Of a stretch of 64,000 bases of DNA, positions 12,085 to 48,983 are shown piece by piece. The stretch is from Malacoraja senta. Its lineage: Eukaryota. Every line of letters starts with the position of its first letter. The first letter of the stretch is position 1. The position numbers and the translations under genes were made by a program. The stretch is taken from assembly GCA_038087875.1 (NCBI GenBank), contig CM075988.1, forward strand, positions 21,826,001-21,890,000, written 5' to 3'. Below the pieces are notes generated by a model. That model was not told the origin of the DNA, made no database searches, and saw nothing but the letters and a program-made list of their open reading frames with translations.

Positions 12085-13657
12085 AGGTGCTGTATGTATG
12101 TAGTTTGTACGTTATCCCTGTGACCTGCGTGGGTTTTCTCCAAGATCTTCGGTTCCCTCCCACACTCCAAAGAAGCACAGTTGCAGGTTAATTGGCTTGG
12201 TATGAATGTAAGATTGTCCCTAGATAGTGTGTAGGATAGTGTTAGTGTGCGGGATTCACTCGTCGATGTGGACCCGATGGGCCGAAGGGCCCGTTTCCAC
12301 GCTGTACCTCTCAAACTAAAACTAAAACAAAGGATAAAGAATGCAGGTATTGACAAAAGACCTGTCAGGTGCTGTGCTGAGGAACAACATTGCTGCACAG
12401 TGGATAGTTGGAGACTGGAATGCAATGCAAAGGTAATCATGCAGGAAGATCCAGTTGTGGTTTGCAAAGGAATAAATTAAGTGCTTGAAATGAAAAGATT
12501 GCAGGGCAGTGGGGAGAGAGTGGGAGCATGTGCATTGTTTATTATTGATGCATGCATTCTTCTTCATGCTGTAACTACCTTGTGATAGAACAACTCTTAC
12601 ACCTGCCAATTAGACTGCATTTCCGAGATGTGAGCAGCACCTTGGATCGCTGGTCGGTGTGGACTCGGTGGGCTGAAGGGCCTGTCTTCGTGCTGTATCT
12701 CTAAAACTAAACTAAAACTCGTGCCAACATGTGCACTTCCTGCCTTACATAAGGAGGCCAATACTATGCGTGGAATGTCAGGTCTGGTCCCACCAATGCT
12801 CTATATAACTGAAGCAAAACCTCCCTATTTTTTATTCAACTTCCCACGCAATAAATAATATTTTGCTGGCTTTGCTAATTACTTACTGTATGGCACGCAA
12901 GCCTTTGGTAGTCCCAGCTGTAAGACAGCCAAGTACCATTGTATCTCAGTGTTCTGTAATCTCTCACAGTCAGATAAATGCATTTTTTTTTTTTTGCAGC
13001 CAAATTGGACAATCTAATTTCTACTTGCAAGATATTGTGTTGCCAGATCTTTGCCAACTCACTCAACTGATCTCTTTTCATTTGGTGACTTCCCTTCCAT
13101 CCACTTCACAACTTGCCTTTCTACCTAATGTAAGAAAACAGATGCTGGCTGTGTAGGAAGGAACTGCAGATGCCGGTTTCAACCGAAGATTGACACAAAA
13201 AGCTGGAGAAACAGGCAGCATCTCTGGAGAGAAGGAATGGGTGACGTTTCGGGTCGAGACCCTGGGTCTCGACTTGAAACGTCACCCATTCCTTCTCTCA
13301 ACAGATACTGGTTTATACCAAAGACAGACACAAAGTGCTGGTGTAACTCTGGCAGCTCCGGCAGCAACTCGGGAACAAATGGATAGTGATGTTTCAAGTC
13401 GGGACCCTTCTTCAGACTAAAACAAGTCTCTTTTCTCCAGTCTGAAGAAGGAACAAAGGCTAGAAGTGAAATGGAGACCAAAATCTAATGATAAAGTACT
13501 GTAGTTGGATTATATTTCTGTGCTATTATTAAAGTCTTCTTCTTAATGTAAAGAGGAAGTGGAAAAAATTGTCCTACTAATCAAAGATCAGTATGACAAA
13601 ATGTTATTCTTTTAATTCAGAGCAAATTAGATTCCTTTAATTTCTTTAATTCAGAAC

Positions 13658-13958
13658 AAATGGCGCAGCGGTAGCTTTGCTGCCTTACAGCGGCTGAGAC
13701 CCCGGTTCGATCCTGCCTATGGATGCTATTCATATAGAGATTGTACGTTCTCTCCGTGACCACGTGGGTTTTCTCCGGGTGCTCCGGTTTCCTCCCACAT
13801 CCCAAAGACATGCAGGTTTGTAGGCTAATTGGCTTTGGTAAAATTGTAAATTGTCCTTAGTGTGTAGGATAGTGCTAGTGCGCGGGGATCGCTGGTCGGC
13901 ACGGACTCAGTGGGCCGAAGGGCCTGTATCCGCGCTGTACCTCTAAACAAAACTAAAT
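13658..13958 (+). mobile_element. tRNA-derived SINE (HE1/V-SINE-like), near full length
   Basis: A box TGGCGCAGCGG, B box GGTTCGATCC, central domain, CR1-type 3' end GGGCCGAAGGGCCTGT and CTAAA tail. Confidence 0.85.
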
Positions 13959-15257
13959 AAGCAAGTGATATCAATATCTCTTTTCTTTATCTGCCATTTA
14001 TAAATCCTTCCTAAACATAGTTTCTCAATCATTGCCAAAGAGTATTGATCGATGAGTCTTACTGGAGCTAATATCGTCTCATGGCCACCTGTAAACAAAC
14101 TACTTGAGGCTGTTGGCAATGGTGTTTCCAGGGCTGGTGCCAACAGCTTAAAGTGTTCATGTTCTATTCCTGAAGGTTCCACCTCTGCTACTCGGAAAAG
14201 ATACTTTGCCAAAGAATTTTTTTTTTTTAAACATCATTTCACTTTCTGTTTCTTGACATAATGATAAATTCAAATCCAGACTTGTTATTTCAATGAAAAC
14301 AATCCACAGTGTTTCTGCCCATAACCTTCAGGCAATAAAGATAAAGATAGCACCCTTTAAATTGACTTAACACGTAAAATAACAAAGTCAGAAGAGCAGT
14401 GTTGAACATTTATCCTGGTGCTATGAGAAATAGGAAATAGGAACATTTCTGTATCATTCAACCTCGTGAAAGCCTCGTGTCACAGGTAGATAAGGTGGTC
14501 AAAAATAAATTGCAAAGCTTCAAGAAGACAGCAAGGGATAGGGTTGGGGAGAATGCCTGAAAATGCTTAAAGTCCGCTTCACGTGTTTTTTTGATTCTGT
14601 GCTGTACAGAAGGTTGAAACTGAGCCCGTGTAACTGACACACTGCGGTCGACTTTAGTCAGATTCTGTTCTCTGTTGGCAAAGAACAAATGGCAATCGTA
14701 AAACAATAAAATAAAGTCGAACGGGTAACAGGACCGTTTGCTTGTCTGTAATGGGGTGGAATTGGGCTGTGTTTACTAATTCCGTGTTTTTCAGAGATGC
14801 ACGGTTTAGAGGTGTTATACTGTAAGACCATTCAAAAAATGCTTGTGCCTGCTACAGTAAACAACACATCAAAGGAAAATGATGTATATAAAGAATAGAT
14901 GAATGTTTGTTCGTTGAGCAGTCTCCTACATTGCTCCGAGTGCTCACTGTGTTTGACGCTTTTAAATAAAGTTTTGATTGCCTCGCCCGATCGTGAGTTT
15001 AAAGTTTTCTTTAACAATAGGGTGGTCAAAAAGGCTTTTTGGTGCAATGGTACCTGGAACACATTGGCAGGGAATGGTAGTGGAGGGAGATACAATACTG
15101 GTGTTTAAGAGGCTTTTAGATAGGCACATGGAATGGAAGGGATAAAGATCATGTACAGACAAATTAGATCAGTTTAACTTGATAGCATGTTCAGCACAAT
15201 CATTGTGGGTCGAAGGGCCCGTTCCAGTGCTGTACTGGTCCATGTTCAATGTTGTTC

Positions 15258-16018
15258 GACTGGGCTTATATTTGTTGGAATTTAGAAGGATGAGAAGGGT
15301 TCTTATAGAAACATATAAAATTCTTAAGGGATTGGACAGGCTAGATGCAGGGAAAAAGGCAGGAAACATGTTCCCGATGTTGGGGGAGTCCAGAACCAGG
15401 GGCCACAGTTTAAGAATAAGGAGTAAGCCATTTAGAACGGAGACGAGTAACACTTTTTCTCACAGAGAGTGGTGAGTCTGTGGAATTCTCTGCCTCAGAG
15501 GGCGGTGGAGGCAGGTTCTCTGGATGCTTTCAAGAGAGAGCTAGATAGGGCTCTTAAAAATAGCGGAGTCAGGGGATATGGGGAGAAGGCAGGAACGGGG
15601 TACTGATTGTGGATGATCAGCCATGATCACATTGAATGGCTCGAAGGGCCTGATGGCCTACTCCTGCACCTATTGTCTATTGTCTATTGTCTATTGTGTT
15701 CCCTTGTTGGGGCAGTCCAGAACCAGGGGTCACAGTTAAAGAATAAGGGGTAAGCCATTTAGGACCGAAATGAGGAAAAACTTTTTCAGCCAGAGAGTTG
15801 TGAATCTGTGGAATTCTCTGCCACAGAAGGCAGTGGAGGCCGTCACTGGATGTAATCAAGAGAGAGTTAGATATAGCTCTTAGGGCTAACAGGATCAAGG
15901 GATATGGGGAGAAAGCAGGAACGGGGTACTGATTTTGGATGATCAGCCATGATCATATTGAATGGCGGTGCTGGCTCAAAGGGCGAATGGCCTACTCCTG
16001 CGCCGATTTTCTATGTTG
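15258..16018 (+). mobile_element. Two tandem CR1/HER1 3' fragments
   Basis: LGLYLLEFRRMRRVLIETYKILKGLDRLDAG.., a (CTATTGT)n tail at ~15670-15697, then a second fragment. Confidence 0.85.
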
Positions 16019-17702
16019 TCCAATGCAGTTAAATTCTTGCTTTTGCAAGGAACAGAAATCTTTAATGGTAATGCAGATGTAGTTTCCCCAACACTGTGCA
16101 GCTGGAGCGAGACTTCCTTTACCACACTCCATCTTCTCCGCAATAAATGCCAGCGTTTTATTCGCATTCCTAATCGCCTATCAAGCCTCCCCACTGACTT
16201 CCCCATGTTTCACATACAAAGACAGCGATTCTGTCTGTTCTGCTGGATTTCCTAGCCACTTCTCATTCCTGCACTCGTGCACTTTGGAAGGCACCCAGTC
16301 AAAAACATTCTCTCAAATCCTACTGCTCCAAAGCTTGGTCACAAATTCACCTCCAACCGACTCTCCAATAAACCTGCGAGTGAATAATTGCCTCTAAAAG
16401 CCCGACGTCTCAAATGGTGCACATTCATTAGTGCCTGTCTAAACCTCCTTTTCCTATAACCCTCCGTCAGGTTTTTTCTTAATTATGGAATACATTTTCC
16501 AAAAAGGCATCTGAGACAAGGGTGACCCAAGTGCAGAGAATTCTAACGACCTGCCTCTCTGCAGACATTTGCTATTAATCAGTATTCAATTAAACTCAGT
16601 GCCACATCTCAATTTTAAGATGGTACTTTTAAGATGGAAAGTCAAAAGATCGAAAAGACTGCCGGAGTCCAAATGGACTGATTTTTATTTGCATTTAGTC
16701 AACTTCAAATAGAAAGGGCTTTTAATTCAAACAATATTTAGATGGGAAAGGAGAATACTAAGGGATCAAAGATGCCCCAACAACTGCAGTTCTGCAGAAC
16801 CCAAAGCTAAATCTTCAAAACCAAAAACAGTGCTGGAGAAGCAGAGCAGGAAATAGTGAGTGATACAGTGTGGAAACAGGCCCTTCGGCCCAACGTGCCC
16901 ACACTGACCAACATGCCTCATCTACACCAGTCCCACCTGCCTGCGTTTGATCCATATCCCTCCAAACCTGTGCTATCCATGTACCTGTCCAAATGTTTCT
17001 TAAACGTTGCAATAGTCCTTGCCTCAACTACCTCCTCCGGCAGCTCGGTCTATACACCTACCATCCTTTGTGTGAAAAAGTTACCCCTCAGATTCCTCTT
17101 CAACCTTCCCCCCCCCCCCCTACCTCACCTTAAACCTATGCTGGAATCTTGAGCAAAAGACAAAGTGCCGGAGGAACTCAGCAGGTGAGGTCACATCTGC
17201 AAAGGGAATGGACAGGCAATGTTTCCCCTCACCTCTCTCTACCAAATTCCTCCCCATTACTCGTCTTGAAGAAGGGTCCCAACACAAAACATTGCCTGTC
17301 CATTCCCTCCACAGATGCTGTCTGACCCGCTGAGTTCCTCCAGTACTTTGTTTTTCCTCTCAAGATTCCAGCATCTGCAGTTCCTTGTGTCTCCTCCCTA
17401 ATGACTGGTTACTGAAAGATCTGATCAGCAAGAAGATGATGGCAAATTGGATATACAGGTAACGTTATGATAATTCCTTTACACCGAGTACATTGTTGGT
17501 TTCCCCTTTGTTTTGTCGGTTTTAACATACGTTTTGATCCATTTGGACAGGTACATGGATCGAACATGTTTAGAGAGACATGGGCTAAACGCAGGCAGGT
17601 GTGACCAGCGTAGATAGGGATCTTGGTTGGCATGTGCAAGTTATGACTCTATGACTTTCTCTGGACCACTTGCCCGGATTCACTCTGTTCCCCTTGGCCT
17701 AT

Positions 17703-18080
17703 GTGACCTCCCGCTTGCCAAACATTTTGACTCCCATTCCCATACTAAGCTTTCTCTCCTGGCCTCCTCCACTGCCGGAGTGAGGTAACCCTTGTATTCC
17801 CTCCGCCCCTCCCCCAGCCTCACCACCTTACTAGTTCCACTATTCAAATCCTTCTATCCCTTTGTTACCACCTCTTCCCCAGCCAACAATGGGCCATTGT
17901 GGGCTCCACCCTTCCTTGCTCATCTCTTGCCAGTCCTGCTCTGATCTGGCCTTTTCCTACCTCCGGTTCCCTCCCCTCTATTTTCAGTCTGAAGAAGGGT
18001 CCCGACCCGAAACGTCGACCACCCTATTTCTCCAGAGATGCTGCCTGACCCGCTGAGTTACTCTAGCACTGTGTGTCTAT
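17703..18080 (+). mobile_element. Degraded Penelope-like 3' fragment
   Basis: DLPLAKHFDSHSH.. remnant similar to 21648-21806, then a pyrimidine-rich spacer and the hammerhead-bearing terminus. Confidence 0.65.
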
Positions 18081-18121
18081 GCCCAGATTCCCAATGTTCA
18101 GCCTTGACCACAAATGAGAGA

Positions 18122-18680
18122 TGTGGCAATGGGAGGAGTAGCTAATGGAAGAGTCCCACCCAGTTTACTTGACCAGGTGAACGCACAGAACATTTGAAAA
18201 GGTTAAACACATTTAAATATATAAAAGATACATGGTGGAATATTTGACTAGGTTGTAGCTTGTATTCCAAGAGAGAGAGGTTGATGTATATTGAGACAAT
18301 GACCGATGCCTTTGAAATGTCTTTGTCCTGGAAGTACCAACTGATAAGATGCCTGTGAAATGTGTCTACTAATTGATAAGAGACAAGCTCAGACTTGTCC
18401 TGTGGTAATGGGTATTGACTGCATCTTGTAACCATGACTAAGAACTTTGGTATATGACTAAGTGACACACAGTATAAAACACCATGCACATTTTTGTTCA
18501 TTGAAGTGGTGGAGTGGGGAAGTCAAGTGTCTGTAGCTTACTTGACTGGTGTAACCCCGTCACTTCCGCCAGCTGATGATCGGTAAAGCTTGAGTTAGTT
18601 TACCTAACATTTTTGTGAGTTGTCTGTTTATTAAGAAGTGAACCTTATCACGTTGACCAGAAGACTGGGAGACATAACCG
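18122..18680 (+). mobile_element. Possible old solo LTR
   Basis: TG start, TATAAAA at ~18473, downstream hairpin AGTCAAGT/ACTTGACT, polyA-like GGTAAAGCTT and a GT-rich U5-like tract. No TSD and no CA end found. Confidence 0.3.
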
Positions 18681-18894
18681 GTTATAATTATGAAATGAAC
18701 GTCAAATCTGACCCAAATAAAAGAACTCCTAATTATTTCCCCACCAATTATTTCCAGAATGTTAAAGAACCTGATGCTGCTAATTGCTCTGAAAAGGAAT
18801 TAAAAACTTCAGCTGCCTTCATTCTATATGTAATTCACCAGCTTGTGGGGACGAGCAAAATTTCAAAAGAGAGTCAGGTTCGTTTAAGAACCTG

Positions 18895-19121
18895 TGCAAG
18901 AAGGAACTGCAGATGCCGGTTTAAACCGAAGATAGACACAAAAAGCTGGAGTGACTCAGCGGGACAGGCAGCATCTCTGGAGAAAAGGAATGGGTGACAT
19001 TTCGGGTCGAGACGGGTTATGATCGGTCTGAAGGGTCTCGACCCGAAATGTCACCCATCCCTTCTCTCCAGAGATGCTGCCTGTCCCGCTGAATCACTCC
19101 AGCTTTTTGTGTCTATCTTTA
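18895..19121. mobile_element. Palindromic Penelope-terminus element (inverted plus direct terminal copies)
   Basis: ~85-bp inverted arms at 18929-19013 and 19035-19119. Flanking direct repeat GTTTAAGAACCTG (18882-18894, 19122-19134). Similar palindromes at ~9650-9862, 13150-13420, 17140-17393, 25197-25345 and 59988-60180. Confidence 0.75.
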
Positions 19122-21915
19122 GTTTAAGAACCTGATGGTGTGGGTTTCTATGGGTTTCAGGTTTCTGTACCTCCTGCTCAATGGAGGCAGCGAGAAGGGG
19201 GTTTGATCCAGGTAGTGCTGATAGATGCCACCTTCTTGAGTCAGTACCTCATATCGATGATTCTGATGGTGGGAAAGGCTGTGGGAAAGGGTGATGGACC
19301 GGGCTGTCTCCACCACTCTCTGCGGCCTCTTGCGTTCCTGTGTGTTGTGATCGCTGGTTGCTTCATCAGCGAACTTCCTTCCATGTTGTATTGGCAGATG
19401 GTCCAACCAAGATTTCACGCCCCTCTCCCTCGCAAAATCCGTCACTTCTCCATGTTCTCCAGAGATAGTCATACAGCATGGAAACAACCCCTTCGGACCT
19501 AACTTGCCCACATCGGCCAACATGTCCCAGCTACACTGGTCCCACCTACCAGCGTTTGGTCCATATTCCTCTAAACCTGTCCTATCCATGTACCTGTATA
19601 ACTGTTTCTGAAATGTTGTGATAGTCCCAGCCTCATCTATCGCCTCTGGAGCTTGTTCCAAACACCCACCACCCTTTGTGTGAAAATGTTACCCCTCAGA
19701 TTCTTAGTATAATGGCAGTTTTAGTAACGTTCTCAAGGTCCAACCTTGACAGCCATAACATCTCGTATATGAAACGGCCATAACTAAATCTTTTTCCCCT
19801 TCACCTTAAATCAATGTCCTCTGGATGCTGCCTGACCTGCTGAGTTTCTCCTGCACTTTGTGTCTCTTTGTGTGAGAAGTGAGGAGTTAGGTATGAGAGG
19901 AATCTCGAGACTTTCAGACCATGGTCGGTCAAGTGCAGAGGCCAGACCGTGCAAAGCGTCAAGTGAGTGAATAACAGAAGTTGGAACGCATCCCATCAAG
20001 TCATAACTGTGAGCAGAAGATGGACGTGAGAGATTTTTGGCGTCAGCTACTGGGAGTAGCACTGACTGAAACCACTACACTGTTCCGTGGAATAATACTT
20101 GAAAGGTTCAGGATTGCAGGAATCAGAATCATCTCACGGGATTAATAGCACACCACTCCAGGACAAGACGATGACGGGGTGATGCTCAGCGCAGTGACCC
20201 GCTATCTTCCCATCAAATTAAGGTGACATTTGAAGGGAGTGATTTACTCTCAGCTCTCTGGCCCACGGGAGGAGATGTGGCCGTCAGCTCTTGGTGGTCC
20301 ATCGAGGAGATACAATCACTGACACTCCAATCAAACTGAGGGCATCCGGAGGATAGCAGTGGACCTGACCTTATCTAACTCGAATAAATAAATTGTCAAG
20401 AAACTGCATGTTTATTCCTCGACGTGTTCAAAGATTGAGTGGAACAGCTACCTAAAATTATTCTGCACAGTTGGGTCTTTCATTAAAGGCTGACACGGGC
20501 TGGTTTCAACAAAGAGTTCTGCAGTTAATGATGATAAAGCTACCTACTTCAATTGATCCGTAACTCTGAACTGGACTTCAGGCAATCCCACTTCTCTTTG
20601 TTCTAAGCTGCGTTCTTTGATATCCTACGTAGAGTAGCCTGCGGTAATTAGTTTGATCTTTGTAGATGCTGCAGAGCTGTGCAGATGTTGACTGGTAGAT
20701 AAAAATGCACCAAACTAGGTACAGGTAAATGCTTTGTTTTACATACAACCCGGGCAGTCTACAAGTGTCGTCATGTGTTGGCACTGACAAAGTTACAAAA
20801 GTACCGAACATTCCCATCTACTGCCTGCCCCACATGTGGCAGCATGCTCCCCCCCTCCCCTCCCCTCCCCTCCCCTCCCCTCCCCTCCTCAAGGGTGATC
20901 TCTCATTTTCACACCTTACCCTTCCATATCTCTATGCCTCCCTCTCCCCTGACTCTCACTGTGAAGAAGGGTCCCGACACAAAACATCACCCATCTTTTT
21001 TCTCCATAGATGCTGCCTGTACCACTGAGTTACTCCAGCATGTTGTGTCTTGTGTAAGAATTTCAATGTTCTGTCCGGGACATATGACAATAAATATCTT
21101 GACTCTTGACTCATGAAATGGTGTTAATTTTCGTTATGGGAGTCCTTGGGCTTGTTAGTATGTCTGGCCTATTTTTGATTGAATGATTGAAACATACAGC
21201 ATGGAAACGGGCCCCTCAGCCCATCAAGTCCGCACCGACCATTGATCACCCGCTCACATTAGTTCTATGTTATCCCCCTTTCCCTTCACACTAGGGAGCA
21301 ATTTGCAGAGGCCAACTAACCTACAAACCCGCAGGTCTTTGGGATGTGGTAGGAAACCAGAGCACCTGGAAGAAACCCACCTGGTCAGCGAGGGAACGTG
21401 AAAACTCCACACAGACAGCACCTGAGGGCAGGATCGAATATGGGGCTCTGATGCTGCGAGGCAGCAGCTCCACCAGCTGTGCCATTGAGACAGAGGCAAG
21501 GAGATCACCTTTAATCAAACACCAACCAAATAATTGGGACTTTTCATAAAAGTCATTTTTATATGAACTTGCAGTTTTAATCTTTTTAAATATAATCTCT
21601 TTGATGTCCTCATTTAGTTAAAAGATACGAGGAATAAATATATTACCTTTAACTCCCCATCACATTCCCAATCGGACCTTTCTGTCCTGGGCCTCCTCCA
21701 TTGTCAGAGTGAGGCCCAGCACAAATTGGAGGAACAGCACCTCATATTTTGCTTGGGTAGTTTACACCCCAGCGGTATGAACATTGACTTCTCTAACATC
21801 AAGTAGCCCTTGCTTTCCCTCTCCCTCCATTCCCTCCCCCTTCCCAGTTCTCCCACCAGTCTTACTGTCTCCAACTACATTCTATCTCTGTCCCACCCAC
21901 TCCCCTGACACCAGT

Positions 21916-21943
21916 CTGAAGAAGGGTCTCGACCCGAAACGTC
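21916..21943 (+). ncRNA. Minimal type I hammerhead ribozyme motif of a Penelope terminus
   Basis: CTGAAGA-A-GGGT CTCG ACCC-GAAACGTC: CUGANGA box, stem II, GAAA box, palindromic ACGT stem III, GUC cleavage triplet. Same motif at 11710-11737 and 17989-18016 (CTGATGA in copy B at 42304); variants near 8383, 24300, 57220 and on the minus strand near 13400, 26770, 62055. Confidence 0.7.
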
Positions 21944-21987
21944 ACCCATTCCTTCTCTCCAGAGATGCTGCCTGTCCCGCTGAGTTA

Positions 21988-22305
21988 AGGGCCTGTCCCA
22001 CTGTACGAGGTAATTCAAGAGCTCTCCCGAGTTAAAAAAAAAAATCAAACTCGTGGTAAGCACGTAGAATGTACGTAGCGGCTACGTCGGAGCTCGGGAC
22101 GTTTCTTAGCGGCTCGTAACGCTAATGGCAGGTACTCGGGAAATGCGGTAAGCTCGTGAAGACTCGTGAAGATTTTTCAACATGTTGAAAAATGTCCACG
22201 AGAGCCCCGAGTACCTACGAGCGGCCATTACCGTAATTCTCCGAGTTCGAATCAGGGGAAACTCGGGAGAGCTCTTGAATTAGCTCGTACAGTGGGACAG
22301 CCCCA
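21988..22305. mobile_element. PIF/Harbinger-type MITE, 318 bp, related to 7518-7837 but in opposite orientation (copy B 46303-46620)
   Basis: TIR AGGGCCTGTCCCACTGTACGAG. TTA TSD splits the Penelope terminus GCTGAG-TTA-CTCCAGC. Confidence 0.9.
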
Positions 22306-22637
22306 TTACTCCAGCATTTTGTGTCTACCTTCGATTTAAACCAGTATCTGCAGTTCTTTCCTACACAATATATTACCTTTTGTTTATTTCATCAAAATAT
22401 AGGATGCCATTTCACATTTTGAAAATGTAGTTTATCCTCGATAGTATTATTTACAAAAATTAATCCCACTTGATACCTAGGAGAAAGCTTGCACCGTTAT
22501 CTAAAGCTGTCATGATATTCCATTACATAAGCTCAGTTTGAATTATTTATCATTTGCTAAACTCAAAGTAATCACCAACTTTGTGATTTTACCCATCACC
22601 AGCCATTGCTTACAAATAAATCTCAGATCACTTTGCA

Positions 22638-22780
22638 ATATATATATCAAAATAAAAATATATATAAAATATATATAATAATATATATAAAATAAATATA
22701 AAAATATACAAAATATATATATATATATAAAAATATATATAATGATATATATAAAATATGCAAAATAAATACATAAAAAG
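22638..22780. repeat. AT-rich low-complexity tract
   Basis: Degenerate (TA)n/AAAATAT units. Confidence 0.9.
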
Positions 22781-23613
22781 CTATACCTTTAGACTTCAAA
22801 GATTATAGACTTTAAAGATACAGTGGAGAAACAGGCTTTTTGGTCCACCGAATCTGTGCTGACCATCGATCACTGTACATAACACTGTCCTATACACTAG
22901 GGACAATTTTACAACTTACTGAAGCCAATTAAACTACAAACCTACAATCTTTGGAGTGCGGGAGGATGCCAGAGCACCCAGTGAAAACTCACGCAGTCAC
23001 AGGGAGAACGTACAAACTCCGTACAGACAGCACCCGTGCTCACAGACAGCTCCATACAGACAGAACCCTGTGATAATAAAGTATCTATCAATCAATCAAT
23101 CATTAATTGAAGAGCGTATCAATGAATTCAGATGCTTAATTTCAGATGGTGCATTCTCAATCGTATTGTCCCCATGCATCAGGGAAACATCACCCCTCCA
23201 CTAACTAACTCCAACTCTTTGCTATTAACTAATTTTGTTGATGAACATCGTTCTTTTTGTTACTGTTAATGAAAGCACGTTTACTGGCAATACCTTTCAC
23301 ACATCATCGCGGTTCCACCAGCCTGTTAATTTGCAAGGAAATCAGTATTTATCCAACAGGAAAATCCCAGAGGAACTCTTCCCTGTCCTAGCTCTTGCAC
23401 AGCAGAACTGTGAATAAGATAAACTAGTATTGGTTCACGACACTAAAGTGACTGCTAATTCTTTCCCTGATTGTTTCCAGAAGCAGGGCAACATTGGGGT
23501 TCATAAGTGAAAGGAGCAGAATTAGGCCATTCGGCCCATCAAGCCTACTCCGCCATTCAATCATGGCTGATGTATCTTTCCCTCTTAACTCCATTACTCC
23601 TGACACCCGTACT

Positions 23614-23803
23614 TCTTCTTTTCGTGTCCATCTTGTTACAAATATTGACCTCGCTGTCATCGTCCGTCCTGAAAAGGACGCGAGCTTCCGGCGACAATCA
23701 GTGGAAGCCGTCACTTGTCGCAACAGATGATGGTGGTAGCAGAATTAGCTCAGGATACTTCCAGTTTCCAGCCCCGCGACGTGGACGCTTCTGCTATGGG
23801 GCC
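23614..23803 (-). mobile_element. 190-bp non-autonomous non-LTR retroelement with 5' HDV-like ribozyme and AAG-type tail (Vingi/Ingi-related, inferred)
   Basis: 11-bp TSD ACACCCGTACT at 23603-23613 and 23804-23814. Interrupts a CR1 3' UTR. Minus-strand 3' end ...GGACACGAAAAGAAGA. No A/B boxes, no ORF. Confidence 0.85.
23737..23803 (-). ncRNA. HDV-like (CPEB3-like) self-cleaving ribozyme, 67 nt
   Basis: Minus strand reads GGCCCC (P1) A TAGCAGAA (P2) GCG (P3) TCCACGT (L3, with the P1.1 CC) CGC (P3') GGGGCT (P1', G1-U wobble) GG (P1.1') AAACTGGAAGTATCCTGA (P4) GCTAA (J4/2, catalytic C at 23748) TTCTGCTA (P2'). All helices of the nested double pseudoknot pair. Confidence 0.88.
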
Positions 23804-24661
23804 ACACCCGTACTAATCCAGTATCTAACTATCTCTGCCTTAAAAATATCCATTGACGGCCTCCACAGCCTTGAATATCTTCAGTTTCCTCCCACACTCC
23901 AAAGACATACAGGTTTGCAGGTTAATTAGCTTTGTTAAAATTGTAAATTCTCCCTGGTGTGTAGGATAGTGCTAGTGTACGGGGATCGCTGGTCGGCGCG
24001 GTCTCGAGTCAAAGGGCATGATTCCGCGCTGTTTCTCTAAAGTCTAAAGTGATTTATGCTTTTTATTGTTACAATTCAAAACATATCAGCTTGGTTTTAC
24101 AGTCAGTTAAATTTGAAGCACATTGTTTATCTATTTGTTTATTCTGCAGACAAGTTGTTCTCAGATATTCAAAGTCACAACTTGCCTCAGGTGGGGATTA
24201 GGAGACAGTGAAGAGATTATAAAAGGGTGTTTCTCTTTATTTCATCAGAATGAAGAATCTTACTGATAAGTAAGAGGGGTGGGGGGAACTACTTTCAGTC
24301 TGAAGAAGGGTCCCGACCCGATACGTCACCCATTCATTTTTCTCCAGAGATGCTGCCTGACCCGCTGAGTTACTCCAACACTTATCTTACTATCTGAACG
24401 CTGTTTAAAACAGCAAGTGAAAGGTAGAATATTTATTTAAATGGAAAATCGAGCGCACTAAATGTGGTAGACGGAAAGAGAGATGAATTTAAGAGAGAAA
24501 AGACACAAGAAACTGAAAGAAATCGTGAAAAATAATGATTTATTTTTGAGAAATATTGAGGTTAGTGCACTTTTCAAAAAAACTTTCGCAATCAAACTTT
24601 GAACTGAATTAGCGCCGACATTCTCAGGCAGGTTTAATGCTTATCTATCAGGTAGAATAGA

Positions 24662-24715
24662 GGGGTGGGAGATTGCAACCTTCACGTGGTCCGCCTTGTT
24701 TCGACAAATGCAATC
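24662..24715 (+). ncRNA. Minimal HDV-like ribozyme (P4 essentially absent), 54 nt
   Basis: GGGGTGG (P1) GA GATTGCA (P2) ACC (P3) TTCACGT (L3) GGT (P3') CCGCCTT (P1') G TTTCGA CAAA (J4/2, catalytic C at 24705) TGCAATC (P2'). P2 and P3 pair perfectly; P1 has three G-U pairs. Confidence 0.8.
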
Positions 24716-24802
24716 AACCTGACGTGCACAATCAAATAAGATCAAATAGAACAAGTTGTCCTACAACTTTAGGCTGTGCACGCCGTACGCAAGAAGAAGA
24801 AG
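24662..24802 (+). mobile_element. 141-bp non-autonomous retroelement with 5' HDV-like ribozyme and (AAG)n tail
   Basis: 12-bp TSD AGGTAGAATAGA at 24650-24661 and 24803-24814. Tail TACGC(AAG)4. 3' half has stems CGTGCACA/TGTGCACG and AAGTTGT/ACAACTT. Confidence 0.85.
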
Positions 24803-25359
24803 AGGTAGAATAGACACAAAATGCTGGAGTAACTCAGCGGGACAGGCAGCATCTCTGGAGAGAAGGTATTCCATCCATGTGCCTATCTAAAGGTCTCATA
24901 AATGTCACTATCGTATCTGCCTCCACCACCACCCCTGGCAGCGTGTTCCAGGCACCCACCACACTCTTTGTGAAAAAGTTGTCCCGCGCATCTCCTTTAA
25001 ATTTTGCCCCTCTCACCTTAATTTACCCATAAACTTATGCCAATATCAATAAGGTGCATTTTATTATCCATAAACTCATTTGTGTTCCTACCTCAAAATA
25101 TGGTGGATAACTGGAAATAACAAAACAAAGCTGGAGGCAAAGAAATGAGGTGAAACTGACTGACCTTCATATCAAGGCAGTATTTGATTTAAGTGGAGAA
25201 ACAAGAAACTGCAGATGCTGGTTAACACACGAAAGGACACAAAGTGCTGGAGTAACCCAGCAGGCCAAACGGCATCTCTGGAGATCCGTGTTCTCCAGAG
25301 GTTCTGCCTGACCTGCTGAGTTACTCCAGCACTTTATGTCCTTTTCAGCATTTGATTAA

Positions 25360-25665
25360 GGTGGCGCAGTGGTAGAGTTGCTGCCTTACAGAGCCAGAGA
25401 CCTGGGTTTGATCCTGACTACGGTGGCTGTCTGTACGGAGTTTGTACGTTCTCCCCGTGGCCTGTGTGGGTTTTCTCTGGGTGCTCTGGTTTCCTCCCAC
25501 ACTCCAATGACGTACAGGTTTGTAGGTTAATTAGCTTTGGTAAATATTGTACCCTGTCCCCTAGTGTGTACAGGATAGTGCTGGTGTGCAGAGATTGCCG
25601 GTCGACGCGGACTCGGTGGGCCAAGGGACCTGTTTCAGTGCTATATCTCTGGACTAAACTAAATT
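25360..25665 (+). mobile_element. tRNA-derived SINE (HE1-like); further copies at ~4875-5135(-), 6295-6520(+), 9868-10140(-), 11905-12330(+), 21190-21485(-), 22790-23040(-), 23880-24050(+)
   Basis: GGTGGCGCAGTGGTAGAG..GGTTTGATCC head, shared body and CTAAA tail. Confidence 0.85.
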
Positions 25666-25699
25666 AAGTGAGGCATCAAGGACACTGGTAAAGTGAGAC

Positions 25700-26074
25700 A
25701 CAATGGAGCAAGGAGAACCAGCTGGGAACAGACTTCGCGACCTCCGCAATTCACTGTTGCACCGAACACCACAGCCCCACCCGGCTCGGACCTGCCCCGC
25801 AAAGAGTGGGTCGCCCTGAACCGGCTCCGTACAGGGGTCGGCCGGTTCAACGCCAACATGCATCACTGGGGGGCTGCGTTCATCGGCAGCCTGCGTGTGT
25901 GGTGCAGACCAGCAAACAGCGCAGCAGCACGTCATTTTCGACTGCGCTGTCCTCCGCCCCCCCTGGTGGAGGGGTAGACCTCACGGCCCTCGACAACAGC
26001 ACATTGAAATGGCTACAGCACCTGCAGGGCCTCACATAATCCCTGCTGCCTCAAACACAAGAAGAAGAAGAAGA
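25700..26074 (+). mobile_element. 5'-truncated Vingi/Ingi-clade LINE 3' end, frameshifted (copy B ~50022-50396)
   Basis: Translates across frameshifts to PPGSDLPRKEWVALNRLRTGVGRF..MHHWG / CVCGADQQTAQ / HVIFDC, the NRLRTG + CxCG..H..C zinc-knuckle C-terminus of I-group/Vingi ORFs. Ends in (AAG)5. Confidence 0.8.
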
Positions 26075-26103
26075 TGCAGAATGGAAATTAAGGGAAATAC
26101 TCT

Positions 26104-26117
26104 CCACTAGGTGGAGC
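26104..26117 (+). promoter_or_regulatory. Candidate CTCF core motif
   Basis: CCACTAGGTGGAGC, one mismatch to CCASYAGRKGGCRS. Motif match only. Confidence 0.25.
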
Positions 26118-26135
26118 CAAGTCTAACACTATGCA

Positions 26136-26273
26136 CAATAAATGTGAACCTGGAGATTAATCATACCAGCCCCAGGGCATCATTCCAGAACTTTCCCACT
26201 GCATGGTCATTAAGGCAAGACTCCTTAAAGACTCTGGGGCTGGTATGATTCATCTCCAGGTTCACATTTATTG
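26136..26273. repeat. Isolated 40-bp inverted repeat with 58-bp spacer (copy B 50458-50595)
   Basis: CAATAAATGTGAACCTGGAGATTAATCATACCAGCCCCAG (26136-26175) versus its reverse complement at 26234-26273, one mismatch. Confidence 0.9.
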
Positions 26274-26972
26274 CGTCAAATATGGCATTGCATTGCAAGG
26301 TTAGAAGTTGGGATTTTCATAGATTGCAACATTTCTAAACTCAGAGTCATTGAGTCATACGTTGTGAGAACAGGCCTTCAGTCCAACTTGTCCACGCTGA
26401 CCAAGATGCTTCATCCACACTAGTTGCACCAGCCCACATTTGGCCAACATCCCTCTAAACCTTTCCTATCAATGTATCCAAACCTGAGGAGCAACTTTTT
26501 CACAAACTGCCAGAGGATGTAGTTGAGGCAGCTGTTGTAACAACAGAGTGTCATAGAGCCATACAGGGTGGAAATGGGCCCTTCGGCCCAACTCGCCCAC
26601 GCCGACCAACATTTAAAAGACATTTGGCCAGGAACATGGATCGGAAAGCTTTATGTGCCGATCACAGGTAAAGGGGATTAGCTAAGATGTGGATAGACAC
26701 AAAATGCTGGAGTAACTCAGCGGATCTGGAAGCATCTCTGGAGAGAAGGAATCGGTGACGTTTCCGGTCGAGACCCTTCTTCAGACATCTTAAGATGTGG
26801 ATCTTGGTTGGTATCTTGGCCTAAGGGCTTGAGCCGTACAAATCTATGACTTAATTTCATGAATAGCTGAGGTAGACACTGTGAAATTAAAATGTTGTCG
26901 GTTTGTTAAGTAGCTGTTATTCTAAGGTCACATCTCCTATTCTCTGTCCAATTATTGTAATGGTGTTTTAAT

Positions 26973-36100: not shown

Positions 36101-39100
36101 TCATTTTGTCCATCCTTAAATTCTATCTTGATTAGACAAGGAGAATTTGTAGCTTTGGTGATAAGATCAAAAACCAAAGGACAAAGAGTGAAATATTGGC
36201 AAAAGACCTTGCCTTACAGTGCGAGAGACCCGGGTTCGATCCTAACTACAGGTGGATCCACTGTGGTGGATGTTAATTTGTGTTTATTGTGTGTTTTGTC
36301 ATTTATTATTATATGTATGACTGCAGGCAACGAAATTTCGTTCAGACCGAAAGGTCTGAATGACAAATAAAGGAATCTCTAATCTCTAATCTCTAATCTC
36401 TAAGGTGCTGTATGTATGTAGTTTGTACGTTATCCCTGTGACCTGCGTGGGTTTTCTCCAAGATCTTCGGTTCCCTCCCACACTCCAAAGAAGCACAGTT
36501 GCAGGTTAATTGGCTTGGTATGAATGTGAGATTGTCCCTAGATAGTGTGTAGGATAGTGTTAGTGTGCGGGATTCACTCGTCGATGTGGACCCGATGGGC
36601 CGAAGGGCCCGTTTCCACGCTGTACCTCTCAAACTAAAACTAAAACAAAGGATAAAGAATGCAGGTATTGACAAAAGACCTGTCAGGTGCTGTGCTGAGG
36701 AACAACATTGCTGCACAGTGGATAGTTGGAGACTGGAATGCAATGCAAAGGTAATCATGCAGGAAGATCCAGTTGTGGTTTGCAAAGGAATTAATTAAGT
36801 GCTTGAAATGAAAAGATTGCAGGGCAGTGGGGAGAGAGTGGGAGCATGTGCATTGTTTATTATTGATGCATGCATTCTTCTTCATGCTGTAACTACCTTG
36901 TGATAGAACAACTCTTACACCTGCCAATTAGACTGCATTTCCGAGATGTGAGCAGCACCTTGGATCGCTGGTCGGTGTGGACTCGGTGGGCTGAAGGGCC
37001 TGTCTTCGTGCTGTATCTCTAAAACTAAACTAAAACTCGTGCCAACATGTGCACTTCCTGCCTTACATAAGGAGGCCAATACTATGCGTGGAATGTCAGG
37101 TCTGGTCCCACCAATGCTCTATATAACTGAAGCAAAACCTCCCTATTTTTTATTCAACTTCCCACGCAATAAATAATATTTTGCTGGCTTTGCTAATTAC
37201 TTACTGTATGGCACGCAAGCCTTTGGTAGTCCCAGCTGTAAGACAGCCAAGTACCATTGTATCTCAGTGTTCTGTAATCTCTCACAGTCAGATAAATGCA
37301 TTTTTTTTTTTTTGCAGCCAAATTGGACAATCTAATTTCTACTTGCAAGATATTGTGTTGCCAGATCTTTGCCAACTCACTCAACTGATCTCTTTTCATT
37401 TGGTGACTTCCCTTCCATCCACTTCACAACTTGCCTTTCTACCTAATGTAAGAAAACAGATGCTGGCTGTGTAGGAAGGAACTGCAGATGCCGGTTTCAA
37501 CCGAAGATTGACACAAAAAGCTGGAGAAACAGGCAGCATCTCTGGAGAGAAGGAATGGGTGACGTTTCGGGTCGAGACCCTGGGTCTCGACTTGAAACGT
37601 CACCCATTCCTTCTCTCAACAGATACTGGTTTATACCAAAGACAGACACAAAGTGCTGGTGTAACTCTGGCAGCTCCGGCAGCAACTCGGGAACAAATGG
37701 ATAGTGATGTTTCAAGTCGGGACCCTTCTTCAGACTAAAACAAGTCTCTTTTCTCCAGTCTGAAGAAGGAACAAAGGCTAGAAGTGAAATGGAGACCAAA
37801 ATCTAATGATAAAGTACTGTAGTTGGATTATATTTCTGTGCTATTATTAAAGTCTTCTTCTTAATGTAAAGAGGAAGTGGAAAAAATTGTCCTACTAATC
37901 AAAGATCAGTATGACAAAATGTTATTCTTTTAATTCAGAGCAAATTAGATTCCTTTAATTTCTTTAATTCAGAACAAATGGCGCAGCGGTAGCTTTGCTG
38001 CCTTACAGCGGCTGAGACCCCGGTTCGATCCTGCCTATGGATGCTATTCATATAGAGATTGTACGTTCTCTCCGTGACCACGTGGGTTTTCTCCGGGTGC
38101 TCCGGTTTCCTCCCACATCCCAAAGACATGCAGGTTTGTAGGCTAATTGGCTTTGGTAAAATTGTAAATTGTCCTTAGTGTGTAGGATAGTGCTAGTGCG
38201 CAGGGATCGCTGGTCGGCACGGACTCAGTGGGCCGAAGGGCCTGTATCCGCGCTGTACCTCTAAACAAAACTAAATAAGCAAGTGATATCAATATCTCTT
38301 TTCTTTATCTGCCATTTATAAATCCTTCCTAAACATAGTTTCTCAATCATTGCCAAAGAGTATTGATCGATGAGTCTTACTGGAGCTAATATCGTCTCAT
38401 GGCCACCTGTAAACAAACTACTTGAGGCTGTTGGCAATGGTGTTTCCAGGGCTGGTGCCAACAGCTTAAAGTGTTCATGTTCTATTCCTGAAGGTTCCAC
38501 CTCTGCTACTCGGAAAAGATACTTTGCCAAAGAATTTTTTTTTTTTAAACATCATTTCACTTTCTGTTTCTTGACATAATGATAAATTCAAATCCAGACT
38601 TGTTATTTCAATGAAAACAATCCACAGTGTTTCTGCCCATAACCTTCAGGCAATAAAGATAAAGATAGCACCCTTTAAATTGACTTAACACGTAAAATAA
38701 CAAAGTCAGAAGAGCAGTGTTGAACATTTATCCTGGTGCTATGAGAAATAGGAAATAGGAACATTTCTGTATCATTCAACCTCGTGAAAGCCTCGTGTCA
38801 CAGGTAGATAAGGTGGTCAAAAATAAATTGCAAAGCTTCAAGAAGACAGCAAGGGATAGGGTTGGGGAGAATGCCTGAAAATGCTTAAAGTCCGCTTCAC
38901 GTGTTTTTTTGATTCTGTGCTGTACAGAAGGTTGAAACTGAGCCCGTGTAACTGACACACTGCGGTCGACTTTAGTCAGATTCTGTTCTCTGTTGGCAAA
39001 GAACAAATGGCAATCGTAAAACAATAAAATAAAGTCGAACGGGTAACAGGACCGTTTGCTTGTCTGTAATGGGGTGGAATTGGGCTGTGTTTACTAATTC

Positions 39101-42100
39101 CGTGTTTTTCAGAGATGCACGGTTTAGAGGTGTTATACTGTAAGACCATTCAAAAAATGCTTGTGCCTGCTACAGTAAACAACACATCAAAGGAAAATGA
39201 TGTATATAAAGAATAGATGAATGTTTGTTCGTTGAGCAGTCTCCTACATTGCTCCGAGTGCTCACTGTGTTTGACGCTTTTAAATAAAGTTTTGATTGCC
39301 TCGCCCGATCGTGAGTTTAAAGTTTTCTTTAACAATAGGGTGGTCAAAAAGGCTTTTTGGTGCAATGGTACCTGGAACACATTGGCAGGGAATGGTAGTG
39401 GAGGGAGATACAATACTGGTGTTTAAGAGGCTTTTAGATAGGCACATGGAATGGAAGGGATAAAGATCATGTACAGACAAATTAGATCAGTTTAACTTGA
39501 TAGCATGTTCAGCACAATCATTGTGGGTCGAAGGGCCCGTTCCAGTGCTGTACTGGTCCATGTTCAATGTTGTTCGACTGGGCTTATATTTGTTGGAATT
39601 TAGAAGGATGAGAAGGGTTCTTATAGAAACATATAAAATTCTTAAGGGATTGGACAGGCTAGATGCAGGGAAAAAGGCAGGAAACATGTTCCCGATGTTG
39701 GGGGAGTCCAGAACCAGGGGCCACAGTTTAAGAATAAGGAGTAAGCCATTTAGAACGGAGACGAGTAACACTTTTTCTCACAGAGAGTGGTGAGTCTGTG
39801 GAATTCTCTGCCTCAGAGGGCGGTGGAGGCAGGTTCTCTGGATGCTTTCAAGAGAGAGCTAGATAGGGCTCTTAAAAATAGCGGAGTCAGGGGATATGGG
39901 GAGAAGGCAGGAACGGGGTACTGATTGTGGATGATCAGCCATGATCACATTGAATGGCTCGAAGGGCCTGATGGCCTACTCCTGCACCTATTGTCTATTG
40001 TCTATTGTCTATTGTGTTCCCTTGTTGGGGCAGTCCAGAACCAGGGGTCACAGTTAAAGAATAAGGGGTAAGCCATTTAGGACCGAAATGAGGAAAAACT
40101 TTTTCAGCCAGAGAGTTGTGAATCTGTGGAATTCTCTGCCACAGAAGGCAGTGGAGGCCGTCACTGGATGTAATCAAGAGAGAGTTAGATATAGCTCTTA
40201 GGGCTAACAGGATCAAGGGATATGGGGAGAAAGCAGGAACGGGGTACTGATTTTGGATGATCAGCCATGATCATATTGAATGGCGGTGCTGGCTCAAAGG
40301 GCGAATGGCCTACTCCTGCGCCGATTTTCTATGTTGTCCAATGCAGTTAAATTCTTGCTTTTGCAAGGAACAGAAATCTTTAATGGTAATGCAGATGTAG
40401 TTTCCCCAACACTGTGCAGCTGGAGCGAGACTTCCTTTACCACACTCCATCTTCTCCGCAATAAATGCCAGCGTTTTATTCGCATTCCTAATCGCCTATC
40501 AAGCCTCCCCACTGACTTCCCCATGTTTCACATACAAAGACAGCGATTCTGTCTGTTCTGCTGGATTTCCTAGCCACTTCTCATTCCTGCACTCGTGCAC
40601 TTTGGAAGGCACCCAGTCAAAAACATTCTCTCAAATCCTACTGCTCCAAAGCTTGGTCACAAATTCACCTCCAACCGACTCTCCAATAAACCTGCGAGTG
40701 AATAATTGCCTCTAAAAGCCCGACGTCTCAAATGGTGCACATTCATTAGTGCCTGTCTAAACCTCCTTTTCCTATAACCCTCCGTCAGGTTTTTTCTTAA
40801 TTATGGAATACATTTTCCAAAAAGGCATCTGAGACAAGGGTGACCCAAGCGCAGAGAATTCTAACGACCTGCCTCTCTGCAGACATTTGCTATTAATCAG
40901 TATTCAATTAAACTCAGTGCCACATCTCAATTTTAAGATGGTACTTTTAAGATGGAAAGTCAAAAGATCGAAAAGACTGCCGGAGTCCAAATGGACTGAT
41001 TTTTATTTGCATTTAGTCAACTTCAAATAGAAAGGGCTTTTAATTCAAACAATATTTAGATGGGAAAGGAGAATACTAAGGGATCAAAGATGCCCCAACA
41101 ACTGCAGTTCTGCAGAACCCAAAGCTAAATCTTCAAAACCAAAAACAGTGCTGGAGAAGCAGAGCAGGAAATAGTGAGTGATACAGTGTGGAAACAGGCC
41201 CTTCGGCCCAACGTGCCCACACTGACCAACATGCCTCATCTACACCAGTCCCACCTGCCTGCGTTTGATCCATATCCCTCCAAACCTGTGCTATCCATGT
41301 ACCTGTCCAAATGTTTCTTAAACGTTGCAATAGTCCTTGCCTCAACTACCTCCTCCGGCAGCTCGGTCTATACACCTACCATCCTTTGTGTGAAAAAGTT
41401 ACCCCTCAGATTCCTCTTCAACCTTCCCCCCCCCCTACCTCACCTTAAACCTATGCTGGAATCTTGAGCAAAAGACAAAGTGCCGGAGGAACTCAGCAGG
41501 TGAGGTCACATCTGCAAAGGGAATGGACAGGCAATGTTTCCCCTCACCTCTCTCTACCAAATTCCTCCCCATTACTCGTCTTGAAGAAGGGTCCCAACAC
41601 AAAACATTGCCTGTCCATTCCCTCCACAGATGCTGTCTGACCCGCTGAGTTCCTCCAGTACTTTGTTTTTCCTCTCAAGATTCCAGCATCTGCAGTTCCT
41701 TGTGTCTCCTCCCTAATGACTGGTTACTGAAAGATCTGATCAGCAAGAAGATGATGGCAAATTGGATATACAGGTAACGTTATGATAATTCCTTTACACC
41801 GAGTACATTGTTGGTTTCCCCTTTGTTTTGTCGGTTTTAACATACGTTTTGATCCATTTGGACAGGTACATGGATCGAACATGTTTAGAGAGACATGGGC
41901 TAAACGCAGGCAGGTGTGACCAGCGTAGATAGGGATCTTGGTTGGCATGTGCAAGTTGTGACTCTATGACTTTCTCTGGACCACTTGCCCGGATTCACTC
42001 TGTTCCCCTTGGCCTATGTGACCTCCCGCTTGCCAAACATTTTGACTCCCATTCCCATACTAAGCTTTCTCTCCTGGCCTCCTCCACTGCCGGAGTGAGG

Positions 42101-48051: not shown

Positions 48052-48118
48052 TAGCAGAATTAGCTCAGGATACTTCCAGTTTCCAGCCCCGCCACGTGGA
48101 CGCTTCTGCTATGGGGCC
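48052..48118 (-). ncRNA. Copy-B version of the CPEB3-like HDV ribozyme (element 47929-48118), with a P3 mismatch
   Basis: Same as 23737-23803 except that position 48093 changes P3' from CGC to GGC. Confidence 0.75.
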
Positions 48119-48983
48119 ACACCCGTACTAATCCAGTATCTAACTATCTCTGCCTTAAAAATATCCATTGACGGCCTCCACAGCCTTGAATATCTTCAGT
48201 TTCCTCCCACACTCCAAAGACATACAGGTTTGCAGGTTAATTAGCTTTGTTAAAATTGTAAATTCTCCCTGGTGTGTAGGATAGTGCTAGTGTACGGGGA
48301 TCGCTGGTCGGCGCGGTCTCGAGTCAAAGGGCATGATTCCGCGCTGTTTCTCTAAAGTCTAAAGTGATTTATGCTTTTTATTGTTACAATTCAAAACATA
48401 TCAGCTTGGTTTTACAGTCAGTTAAATTTGAAGCACATTGTTTATCTATTTGTTTATTCTGCAGACAAGTTGTTCTCAGATATTCAAAGTCACAACTTGC
48501 CTCAGGTGGGGATTAGGAGACAGTGAAGAGATTATAAAAGGGTGTTTCTCTTTATTTCATCAGAATGAAGAATCTTACTGATAAGTAAGAGGGGTGGGGG
48601 GAACTACTTTCAGTCTGAAGAAGGGTCCCGACCCGATACGTCACCCATTCATTTTTCTCCAGAGATGCTGCCTGACCCGCTGAGTTACTCCAACACTTAT
48701 CTTACTATCTGAACGCTGTTTAAAACAGCAAGTGAAAGGTAGAATATTTATTTAAATGGAAAATCGAGCGCACTAAATGTGGTAGACGGAAAGAGAGATG
48801 AATTTAAGAGAGAAAAGACACAAGAAACTGAAAGAAATCGTGAAAAATAATGATTTATTTTTTTACCAGCCAATATTGAGAAGTTAGTGCACTTTTCAAA
48901 AAAACTTTCGCAATCAAACTTTGAACTGAATTAGCGCCGACATTCTCAGGCAGGTTTAATGCTTATCTATCAGGTAGAATAGA

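Follow-up and report, generated by a model that had tools for sequence, protein, structure and literature searches.

The stretch of DNA analysed here, referred to as the window, comprises 64,000 nucleotides (nt) of the cartilaginous fish Malacoraja senta (GenBank assembly GCA_038087875.1, contig CM075988.1, positions 21,826,001 to 21,890,000 of the forward strand). Reading of the window sequence places a 190-nt element on the minus strand, running from its first nucleotide, G1, at 23803 to 23614. The head of the element is a predicted ribozyme of the hepatitis delta virus (HDV) type, which resembles the mammalian CPEB3 ribozyme. The sequence and structural comparisons described below suggest, with a probability of roughly 85%, that the element is a non-autonomous retroelement without long terminal repeats (non-LTR) and without an open reading frame (ORF), which parasitises a long interspersed nuclear element (LINE) of the RTE type.

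The insertion and its ribozyme fold

The element is flanked on both sides by the 11-mer AGTACGGGTGT, as listed in Table 1. This 11-mer has six matches with at most one mismatch in the window, compared with 0.48 expected. The element was inserted within a common host repeat, and three uninterrupted paralogs of this repeat are found at 1075-1215, 58251-58390 and 517-655 of the window. Each of them contains a single 11-mer, exact or with 1-2 different bases. Because the unduplicated site is seen once in these paralogs, the flanking 11-mers represent a true target-site duplication (TSD). The first-pass annotation, which was made from the sequence alone and had proposed a 190-bp insertion with an 11-bp TSD, was correct on this point.

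The first 67 nt fold as an HDV-type double pseudoknot. P1 pairs G1-C6 with G29-U34, with the G1.U34 wobble at the cleavage-site end; P2 consists of 8 bp (positions 8-15 with 60-67); P3 pairs G16-G18 with C26-C28 and closes the loop L3 (UCCACGU). P1.1 is formed by C20C21 with G35G36, and the joining segment J4/2 reads AGCUAA. The features by which HDV-like ribozymes are recognised are present, namely a G1 at the base of P1 (G1.U34) and a cytosine in J4/2 (C56). By analogy with the HDV family, C56 is the candidate catalytic cytosine.

At the gathering threshold, the Rfam search of the 64-kb window returned a single match, CPEB3_ribozyme (RF00622), at 23811-23738 on the minus strand, with 35.5 bits and an E-value of 9.2e-6; the curated gathering cut-off of this family is 35 bits. 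In the region 23600-23900, searched in E-value mode to E 10, RF00622 was the sole ribozyme family, accompanied by two chance-level unrelated matches (E 3.9 and 9.6). Neither HDV_ribozyme nor any other HDV-like Rfam model matched 23600-23900 up to E 10. Our own covariance model, R1, scores the window head at 57.7 bits. The resemblance to CPEB3 that had been noticed in the first-pass annotation is real and specific, with RF00622 as the only ribozyme family matched and the other HDV-like models silent.

Related ribozymes were searched in the whole assembly with RF00622. A rough count gave about 102,000 first-look candidates. Among the 59 candidates that were scored, 51 had E <= 1e-3 and 39 were above the cut-off, the best reaching 64.2 bits; the same search of 14 control genomes gave no RF00622 match. 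The 30 loci returned form five further families, designated A (12 loci), B (3), C (5), D (4) and E (6). The genome contains at least five ribozyme families besides the window type.

For the covariation analysis, 22 heads of the six families were aligned, four of the families being represented by three or four loci each. Scored as a double pseudoknot, 89.5% of the cells were paired, versus 35-47% when the partners were slid by 1-3 columns. Changes on both sides were found in 15 of the 27 pairs (P1 3/7, P2 4/8, P3 1/3, P4 7/8), and the P1.1 C-G pair was invariant (21/21). For four of the five covariation measures, the observed values were reached by 0-1 of 500 shuffles; the fifth, the count of further pair types, was not above the shuffles (469/500). 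The register at the top of P1 differs between the window type and the others, and the window P4 is out of register, so that its paired share is lowered. The core is kept in all six families: a G.U or G-C pair at the cut site, the cytosine of J4/2, L3 and P1.1. J4/2 reads C(G/U/C)AA in six of six. The covariation check suggested by the first-pass annotation has revealed compensating changes in P1, P2, P3 and P4 between families, and together with the RF00622 match it bears out the fold as first drawn.

Table 1. Coordinates of the 190-nt element, its ribozyme helices and its duplicate (window positions)
Feature	Position	Strand	Evidence or remark
5' TSD copy AGTACGGGTGT	23804-23814	-	Directly upstream of G1; single in host-repeat paralogs
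HDV-type (CPEB3-like) ribozyme, 67 nt, predicted; G1 = 23803	23737-23803	-	RF00622 35.5 bits; model R1 57.7 bits; between-family covariation
P1, 5' strand GGCCCC; partner 23770-23775 (GGGGCU), G1.U34 wobble included	23798-23803	-	Both-side changes in P1 columns between families
P2, 5' strand UAGCAGAA; partner 23737-23744 (UUCUGCUA)	23789-23796	-	4/8 pairs change on both sides; present in the minimum free energy (MFE) fold
P3 (GCG/CGC) around L3 UCCACGU; L3 C20C21 with G35G36 (23768-23769) = P1.1	23776-23788	-	Near-identity to the Rfam CPEB3 consensus
P4, weak hairpin with U.U mismatch	23751-23764	-	Rfam alignment flags non-standard pairs
C56 in J4/2 (AGCUAA), candidate catalytic cytosine	23748	-	Position from alignment to RF00622 and the other families
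Element body, positions 68-175, begins CCACC	23629-23736	-	blastn: no similarity to the partner LINE; hairpins predicted
3' box GACACGAAAAGAAGA, identical to the RTE-A LINE 3' end; (AGA)n added in other copies	23614-23628	-	Sequence comparison
3' TSD copy	23603-23613	-	Second 11-mer
Duplicate of the same insertion	47929-48118	-	98% identical; mismatch in P3; same flanks; in the 13.4-kb duplication

The second copy of the element in the window lies inside a 13.4-kb block (13614-26972 versus 37932-51294) with 99.8% identity. It does not represent a separate insertion, as had been considered; one insertion was copied later by the 13.4-kb duplication. The two copies differ at 3 of 190 nt, which is above the block average. 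The block belongs to a large direct duplication with an offset of about 24.3 kb, which probably relates ~4.2-27.0 kb to ~28.5-51.3 kb and is either a real, recent segmental duplication or an assembly artefact.

Copies in the genome and the probable partner LINE

The 1.94-Gb assembly that contains the window was searched with the 190-nt element, and 2064 candidate places were identified. The best 40 of these 2064, from which the identity figures were taken, are all 96-100% identical. Positions 1-190 are covered in 36 of these 40, and the other four are short by at most 2 nt at one end. The 30 loci that were fetched represent 27 independent insertions with unrelated flanks, three pairs having flanks in common. 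The mean pairwise identity among the 27 copies is 96.5%, and the family is young. Departures from the majority base among these copies amount to 0.9% of cells in the ribozyme versus 2.4% in the body; this lower variability speaks for the ribozyme, but it is only suggestive, as the copies are related and pre-selected. The insertion sites have no target specificity, as judged by the unrelated flanks of the fetched loci.

Of the 27 independent insertions, 20 have a TSD of 9-14 nt. Five others have TSD matches of 6-8 nt or imperfect ones, and two have no TSD within reach, one of which carries a long (AGA)n tail. The TSD adjoins G1 exactly in 13 of the 20; in five the boundary is ambiguous by 1-2 target bases that are identical to the first bases of the copy; of the remaining two, one is displaced because the copy contains an extra C, and one has 2 extra nt. 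In contigs of the public run X12, 75 and 109 pieces stop matching at 23803 and 23804, with no common continuation. These boundaries, together with the genome-wide starts of the best copies, agree with the first-pass prediction that the element begins at the predicted cleavage site.

The copies end with GACACGAAAAGAAGA, followed by an AGA/AAG repeat of variable length, from 0 to more than 45 nt. The first base of the TSD is A in 17 of the 20, which fits microhomology with the (AGA)n tail, as in RTE-mobilised elements. A link of the tail repeat to the first TSD base has been reported for RTE-related retroposons (PMC6007223). The dispersed copies, the TSDs and the microsatellite tail identify the family as a retroelement, in line with the earlier proposal.

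The family A ribozyme heads a LINE, with a long ORF starting about 110 nt after the ribozyme in 10 of the 12 A loci. At one of them, L061, the element is ~3.15 kb long, with the ribozyme at its 5' end and a single ORF of 934 aa containing Exo_endo_phos and RVT_1. Its short 3' untranslated region (UTR) ends with ...CAAAGACACGAAAAGAAGAAGAAGA and its 3' end is ...GACACGAAAAGAAGAAGAAGA; the element is flanked by an 11-nt TSD, ACAGAACAAAA. Homologues of the encoded protein share 46-63% identity and the same Pfam architecture, mostly on contigs of 3.0-3.5 kb, and come from aphids, amphioxus, sea urchins, fishes and Anolis. The architecture (a single ORF, an apurinic/apyrimidinic (AP)-type endonuclease plus reverse transcriptase, and a short 3' UTR with a simple repeat) would place the partner LINE in the RTE clade, and it is named RTE-A here.

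The 190-nt element and RTE-A end in exactly the same 15 nt, and the (AGA)n tail is also common to both. The exact 15-mer GACACGAAAAGAAGA was found in five loci of RTE-A, and 24 of the 30 loci of the short element contain it too. The match is free of stop codons in three RTE-A copies, and the frame stays open over 1008-1014 aa in two, so RTE-A may be active now or may have been recently. Because the 15-nt end and the tail are the same, and some copies have open frames, RTE-A is likely to be the mobiliser of the short element. A second RTE lineage (L154) shares about 50% protein identity with RTE-A; it has an open frame of 986 aa and a weak, different HDV-like head (E 0.11).

Several other features of these loci were observed. 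Directly upstream of two otherwise full-length RTE-A copies (L157, 3761-3812 on the minus strand, and L041, upstream of 1501), there are partial tandem repeats of the P2-P3-L3 segment. The main head of L157 has a mutated P1, yet the ORF is open (1008 aa). Family E is a second short ribozyme-headed family of 136-177 nt, with TSDs of 11-12 nt (L051, L057, L058, L059 and L060; locus positions ~1509-1690). Its head is essentially without P4, a minimal HDV-like form, and its tail, ...GGACTCGATAAGAAG, is similar to GGACTCGAAGAAGA, the 3' end of the second RTE lineage (L154, 3740-3775). The head and tail of family E appear again to belong to different LINE lineages.

Inverted-head insertions were found in 10 of the 12 B/C/D loci (L035, L039, L043, L042, L046, L052, L055, L048, L054 and L056) and in one A locus (L038), around locus positions 1500-1620. 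In this layout, a ribozyme and a short stretch downstream of it are joined at G1, in head-to-head orientation, to an RTE body that is truncated at its 5' end and lies on the other strand. The downstream stretch is about 25-35 nt in the four family-C loci measured, and the RTE is truncated anywhere from about aa 577 to 909 of its ORF. The whole composite lies inside one exact TSD in L052 (ACTGAAATAGA), L042 (GATCAGAACT) and L055 (ACTTCCATA); the TSD of L046 is imperfect. The inverted piece is 93-100 nt and nearly constant in the four family-C loci, unlike L1 twin priming. A length so nearly constant points to a 5' head that behaves as a module of its own during integration, perhaps with protein bound to it. 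A literature search found no report of RTE head inversions.

Relation to the mammalian CPEB3 ribozyme

The Rfam RF00622 model and its consensus represent the CPEB3 ribozyme in all comparisons made here. When eight heads, drawn from seven families or sources, were searched in E-value mode, their RF00622 scores were 43.7-64.2 bits. No other HDV-like or ribozyme family was found for these eight heads up to E 1, and the only other matches were sub-threshold ones to microRNA models elsewhere in two loci. P2, P3, L3 and J4/2, and in some families also P1 and P4, are nearly identical to the CPEB3 ribozyme; family C matches the CPEB3 consensus even in the sequence of its P4 stem.

A further likeness was found outside this genome. 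One RTE (L070-L072), sharing 51% protein identity with RTE-A, is present on three of 80 metagenome contigs that encode RTE relatives. In L070 the ribozyme is located at 2781-2853, at the 5' end of the element and directly after a 14-nt TSD. This head follows the Rfam CPEB3 consensus closely, with 35 identical positions among the first 37 nt and 11 among the last 12 nt, and it has the L3 (UCCACGU), the P2 and the J4/2 (GCUAA) of the window type. The L070 element is foreign to this genome: a 620-nt L070 query gave matches of 66-70% only, plus one short-element copy behind a poly-G run. The 3' end of this RTE, which belongs to a eukaryote in the metagenome data, is ...AGAGACACGAATC.

Two short boxes were also observed in these elements. 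ACCAC or CCACC stands directly after P2 in the heads of the window type, families B to E and the metagenome RTE, and family A has AAACAC instead; this may be a conserved 5'-UTR box. A 3' box, GAC[A/T]CGA[A/T], precedes the simple-repeat tail in the metagenome LINE, RTE-A, RTE-C and both short families.

The likeness might be explained by convergence in the narrow sequence space of fast HDV-type folds, in which case it would be uninformative on the origin of the CPEB3 ribozyme. HDV-type cores are strongly constrained, and the window copy itself reaches only 35.5 bits. The likeness is also not general to RTEs. Among 20 diverse RTE loci with 5' regions, 17 have no Rfam match at curated thresholds; when 15 RTE loci were re-scanned with filters off, 11 had no match to our own model, some of them perhaps being 5'-truncated. 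However, the likeness reaches the freely variable helices, as shown by the L070 head and by the P4 stem of family C, and the eight heads match RF00622 and no other ribozyme family. In addition, the similarity falls off gradually with the distance of the RTE proteins. The heads of LINEs that are about 50% identical in protein score 55-66 bits, whereas RTEs at 30-41% protein identity (L142, L088, L077 and L116) carry HDV-like heads that are weaker, stand 100-150 nt before the ORF and keep L3 as UUCACGU or UUCUCGU and little else. Such a decrease fits descent with the LINE and argues against convergence, which we regard as unlikely.

The ribozyme of the element is a relative of the mammalian CPEB3 ribozyme, not its ortholog, as it is multi-copy and borne by a transposable element. 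A Pfam CEBP_ZZ search of the genome gave six matches at four CPEB-type places (C2259, with two identical copies; C2128; C15; and C17), one of which is CPEB2. An exon of this CPEB2 gene reaches 99% identity with chondrichthyan proteins only, versus 95-97% with the remaining named vertebrate proteins among the matches listed, in keeping with a cartilaginous-fish genome. The ribozyme lineage that heads RTE LINEs appears to be the closest known relative of the CPEB3 ribozyme. The likeness of the L070 head supports, without proving, an RTE origin of the mammalian ribozyme. It could be a domesticated RTE head, from a LINE or from a short parasite, that inserted into the CPEB3 intron in an early mammal; judged from these sequence relationships, the chances of this are about even. 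No link between RTE and CPEB3 ribozymes was found in the literature searched, where the primary papers on RTE heads and CPEB3 are known through citing papers and may contain such a link.

If this origin is true, the RTE lineages that remain active in cartilaginous fish and in other animals would provide the outgroup sequences that the literature calls missing. By extension, it would be relevant to the proposed derivation of the HDV ribozyme from the transcriptome of the host. Under descent, the origin and the ancestral states of a ribozyme implicated in memory would become directly testable. This evolutionary lead to CPEB3 is the part that deserves follow-up.

Proposed cycle and comparison with known systems

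No tRNA was detected in the element by ARAGORN, and no B-box match lies inside it, versus 30 elsewhere in the window. The Rfam search of 23600-23900 revealed no similarity to tRNA, 5S or 7SL up to E 10. All these searches agree with the earlier claim that the element has no RNA polymerase III (Pol III) head. It is not a short interspersed nuclear element (SINE) in the strict sense, in which a Pol III head is required. The 30 B-box-like matches (GGTTCGANNCC with at most one mismatch) compare with 9.3 expected in the window, for example at 6334, 11597, 13704, 55567 and 58783. They point to ordinary tRNA-derived SINEs, in contrast to the promoter-less element.

A cycle can be proposed for the 190-nt family as a parasite of RTE-A. 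The promoter-less copy would be transcribed within a longer host or repeat transcript. The first 67 nt would then fold and cut the RNA just 5' of G1, freeing an RNA that starts with the element, as suggested by the anatomy of the copies and by the published ribozymes of RTE, R2 and L1Tc. The endonuclease/reverse transcriptase of RTE-A is the probable enzyme to recognise GACACGAAAAGAAGA and the (AGA)n tail. It would prime on the nicked target and copy the RNA to its 5' end, generating a full 190-nt copy with target duplications of 9-14 bp. Because the whole ribozyme would be copied, the new insertion could again free itself from any transcript.

Several observations weigh against this reading. 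The score of the window head is borderline (35.5 bits, with the cut-off at 35), its P1 has 6 bp instead of 7, and its P4 contains a U.U mismatch. The MFE of the 190-nt RNA was not better than that of shuffles (z = -0.03), by a method that is blind to pseudoknots. The polyA RNA run X18 placed 5-20 reads per strand over the element, with no pile-up of starts at G1; its reads are mostly 90-95% alike, so they are probably from a related species, and a polyA run is uninformative for short non-polyadenylated RNA. With regard to the partner, blastn aligned the short element with RTE-A only in an 18-nt ribozyme core and the 15-nt tail. The head of the short element is of another ribozyme subtype than that of RTE-A, and no LINE with the window's head type was found in the genome searches. 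As only the core and the tail are common to RTE-A, the head and tail of the 190-nt element may come from different sources.

The G1 end might also be set by initiation at an internal promoter, like Pr77 of L1Tc, with the fold acting mainly as a protein-binding or translation module. The 77 nt of L1Tc are promoter and ribozyme together (PMC3383444), and the first 93-100 nt of the family-C RTE RNAs act as a separate module in the inverted-head insertions at four loci. However, the catalytic-core features are kept in all six families, and a translation role is moot for an element without ORF. Moreover, cleavage at the junction has been published for RTE heads (PMC3774820, citing Ruminski 2011). 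Initiation at an internal promoter is therefore considered improbable. It is still far less credible that the 190 nt belong to the interior of a longer repeat, for which the common flanks of the two window copies might speak, or that they are a Pol III SINE, since these flanks are explained by the 13.4-kb duplication, 26 other independent insertions have unrelated flanks and mostly their own TSDs, and the tRNA, 5S, 7SL and B-box searches were empty. A retrozyme-like circle was rejected as well: each unit has a single ribozyme, and the 30 aligned loci showed no repeats of tandem or LTR-like type.

The parasite of RTE-A proposed here is a clean, young, high-copy vertebrate case, for which the sequence shows the head, the tail, the TSDs and a partner LINE that has open frames. 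Together, the 190-nt family and the second short family without P4 would be a good system for testing ribozyme-dependent formation of 5' ends. Considered as a mobile element, the 190-nt family is of an ordinary kind, because ORF-less RTE parasites and the HDV-like heads of RTE, R2 and L1Tc have already been published. The first-pass proposal of a ribozyme-headed, SINE-like family without a Pol III head holds as a description; as a new class it does not, since this kind is already on record in PMC5786205.

The nearest known systems are the bipartite non-autonomous RTEs of marsupials, MAR4_MD, RTESINE2 and WALLSI3, in which only the 5' and 3' parts of the LINE are kept (Kojima 2018, PMC5786205). 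In that paper, a 5' ribozyme is proposed as the reason why such elements retain the LINE 5' terminus. Like the 190-nt element, they are short, ORF-less and without a Pol III head, and they have an RTE-type 3' end and are mobilised in trans. Both of their ends come from one LINE, whereas the 190-nt element has the tail of RTE-A and a head subtype closest to the metagenome RTE. Its 108-nt middle matches neither LINE, and its host is a cartilaginous fish.

The R2 SIDEs of Drosophila (Eickbush and Eickbush 2012, PMC3414825; PMC3774820) and the NARTc/SIDER elements of trypanosomatids (PMC3383444, PMC4035085) also combine an HDV-like head with a LINE 3' end. In these elements, the head frees the 5' end from a co-transcript, and the LINE 3' end serves target-primed reverse transcription. 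These elements ride other LINE clades (R2 and ingi/L1Tc, respectively); the R2 SIDEs are specific for sites in the ribosomal DNA, whereas the 190-nt family inserts anywhere.

HDV-like ribozymes have been described at the 5' ends of RTE LINEs (PMC3774820, PMC6765202, PMC5786205), and they are stated to cleave at the 5' junction of the element (PMC3774820, citing Ruminski 2011). RTE-A of this genome is a direct example of such a LINE, alike in the position, the fold and the presumed role of its head. The carrier of the ribozyme is probably the RTE clade of LINEs. In comparison with the mammalian CPEB3 ribozyme, the fold here is multi-copy and stands at the 5' ends of mobile elements, in the DNA of a cartilaginous fish and of a metagenome eukaryote.

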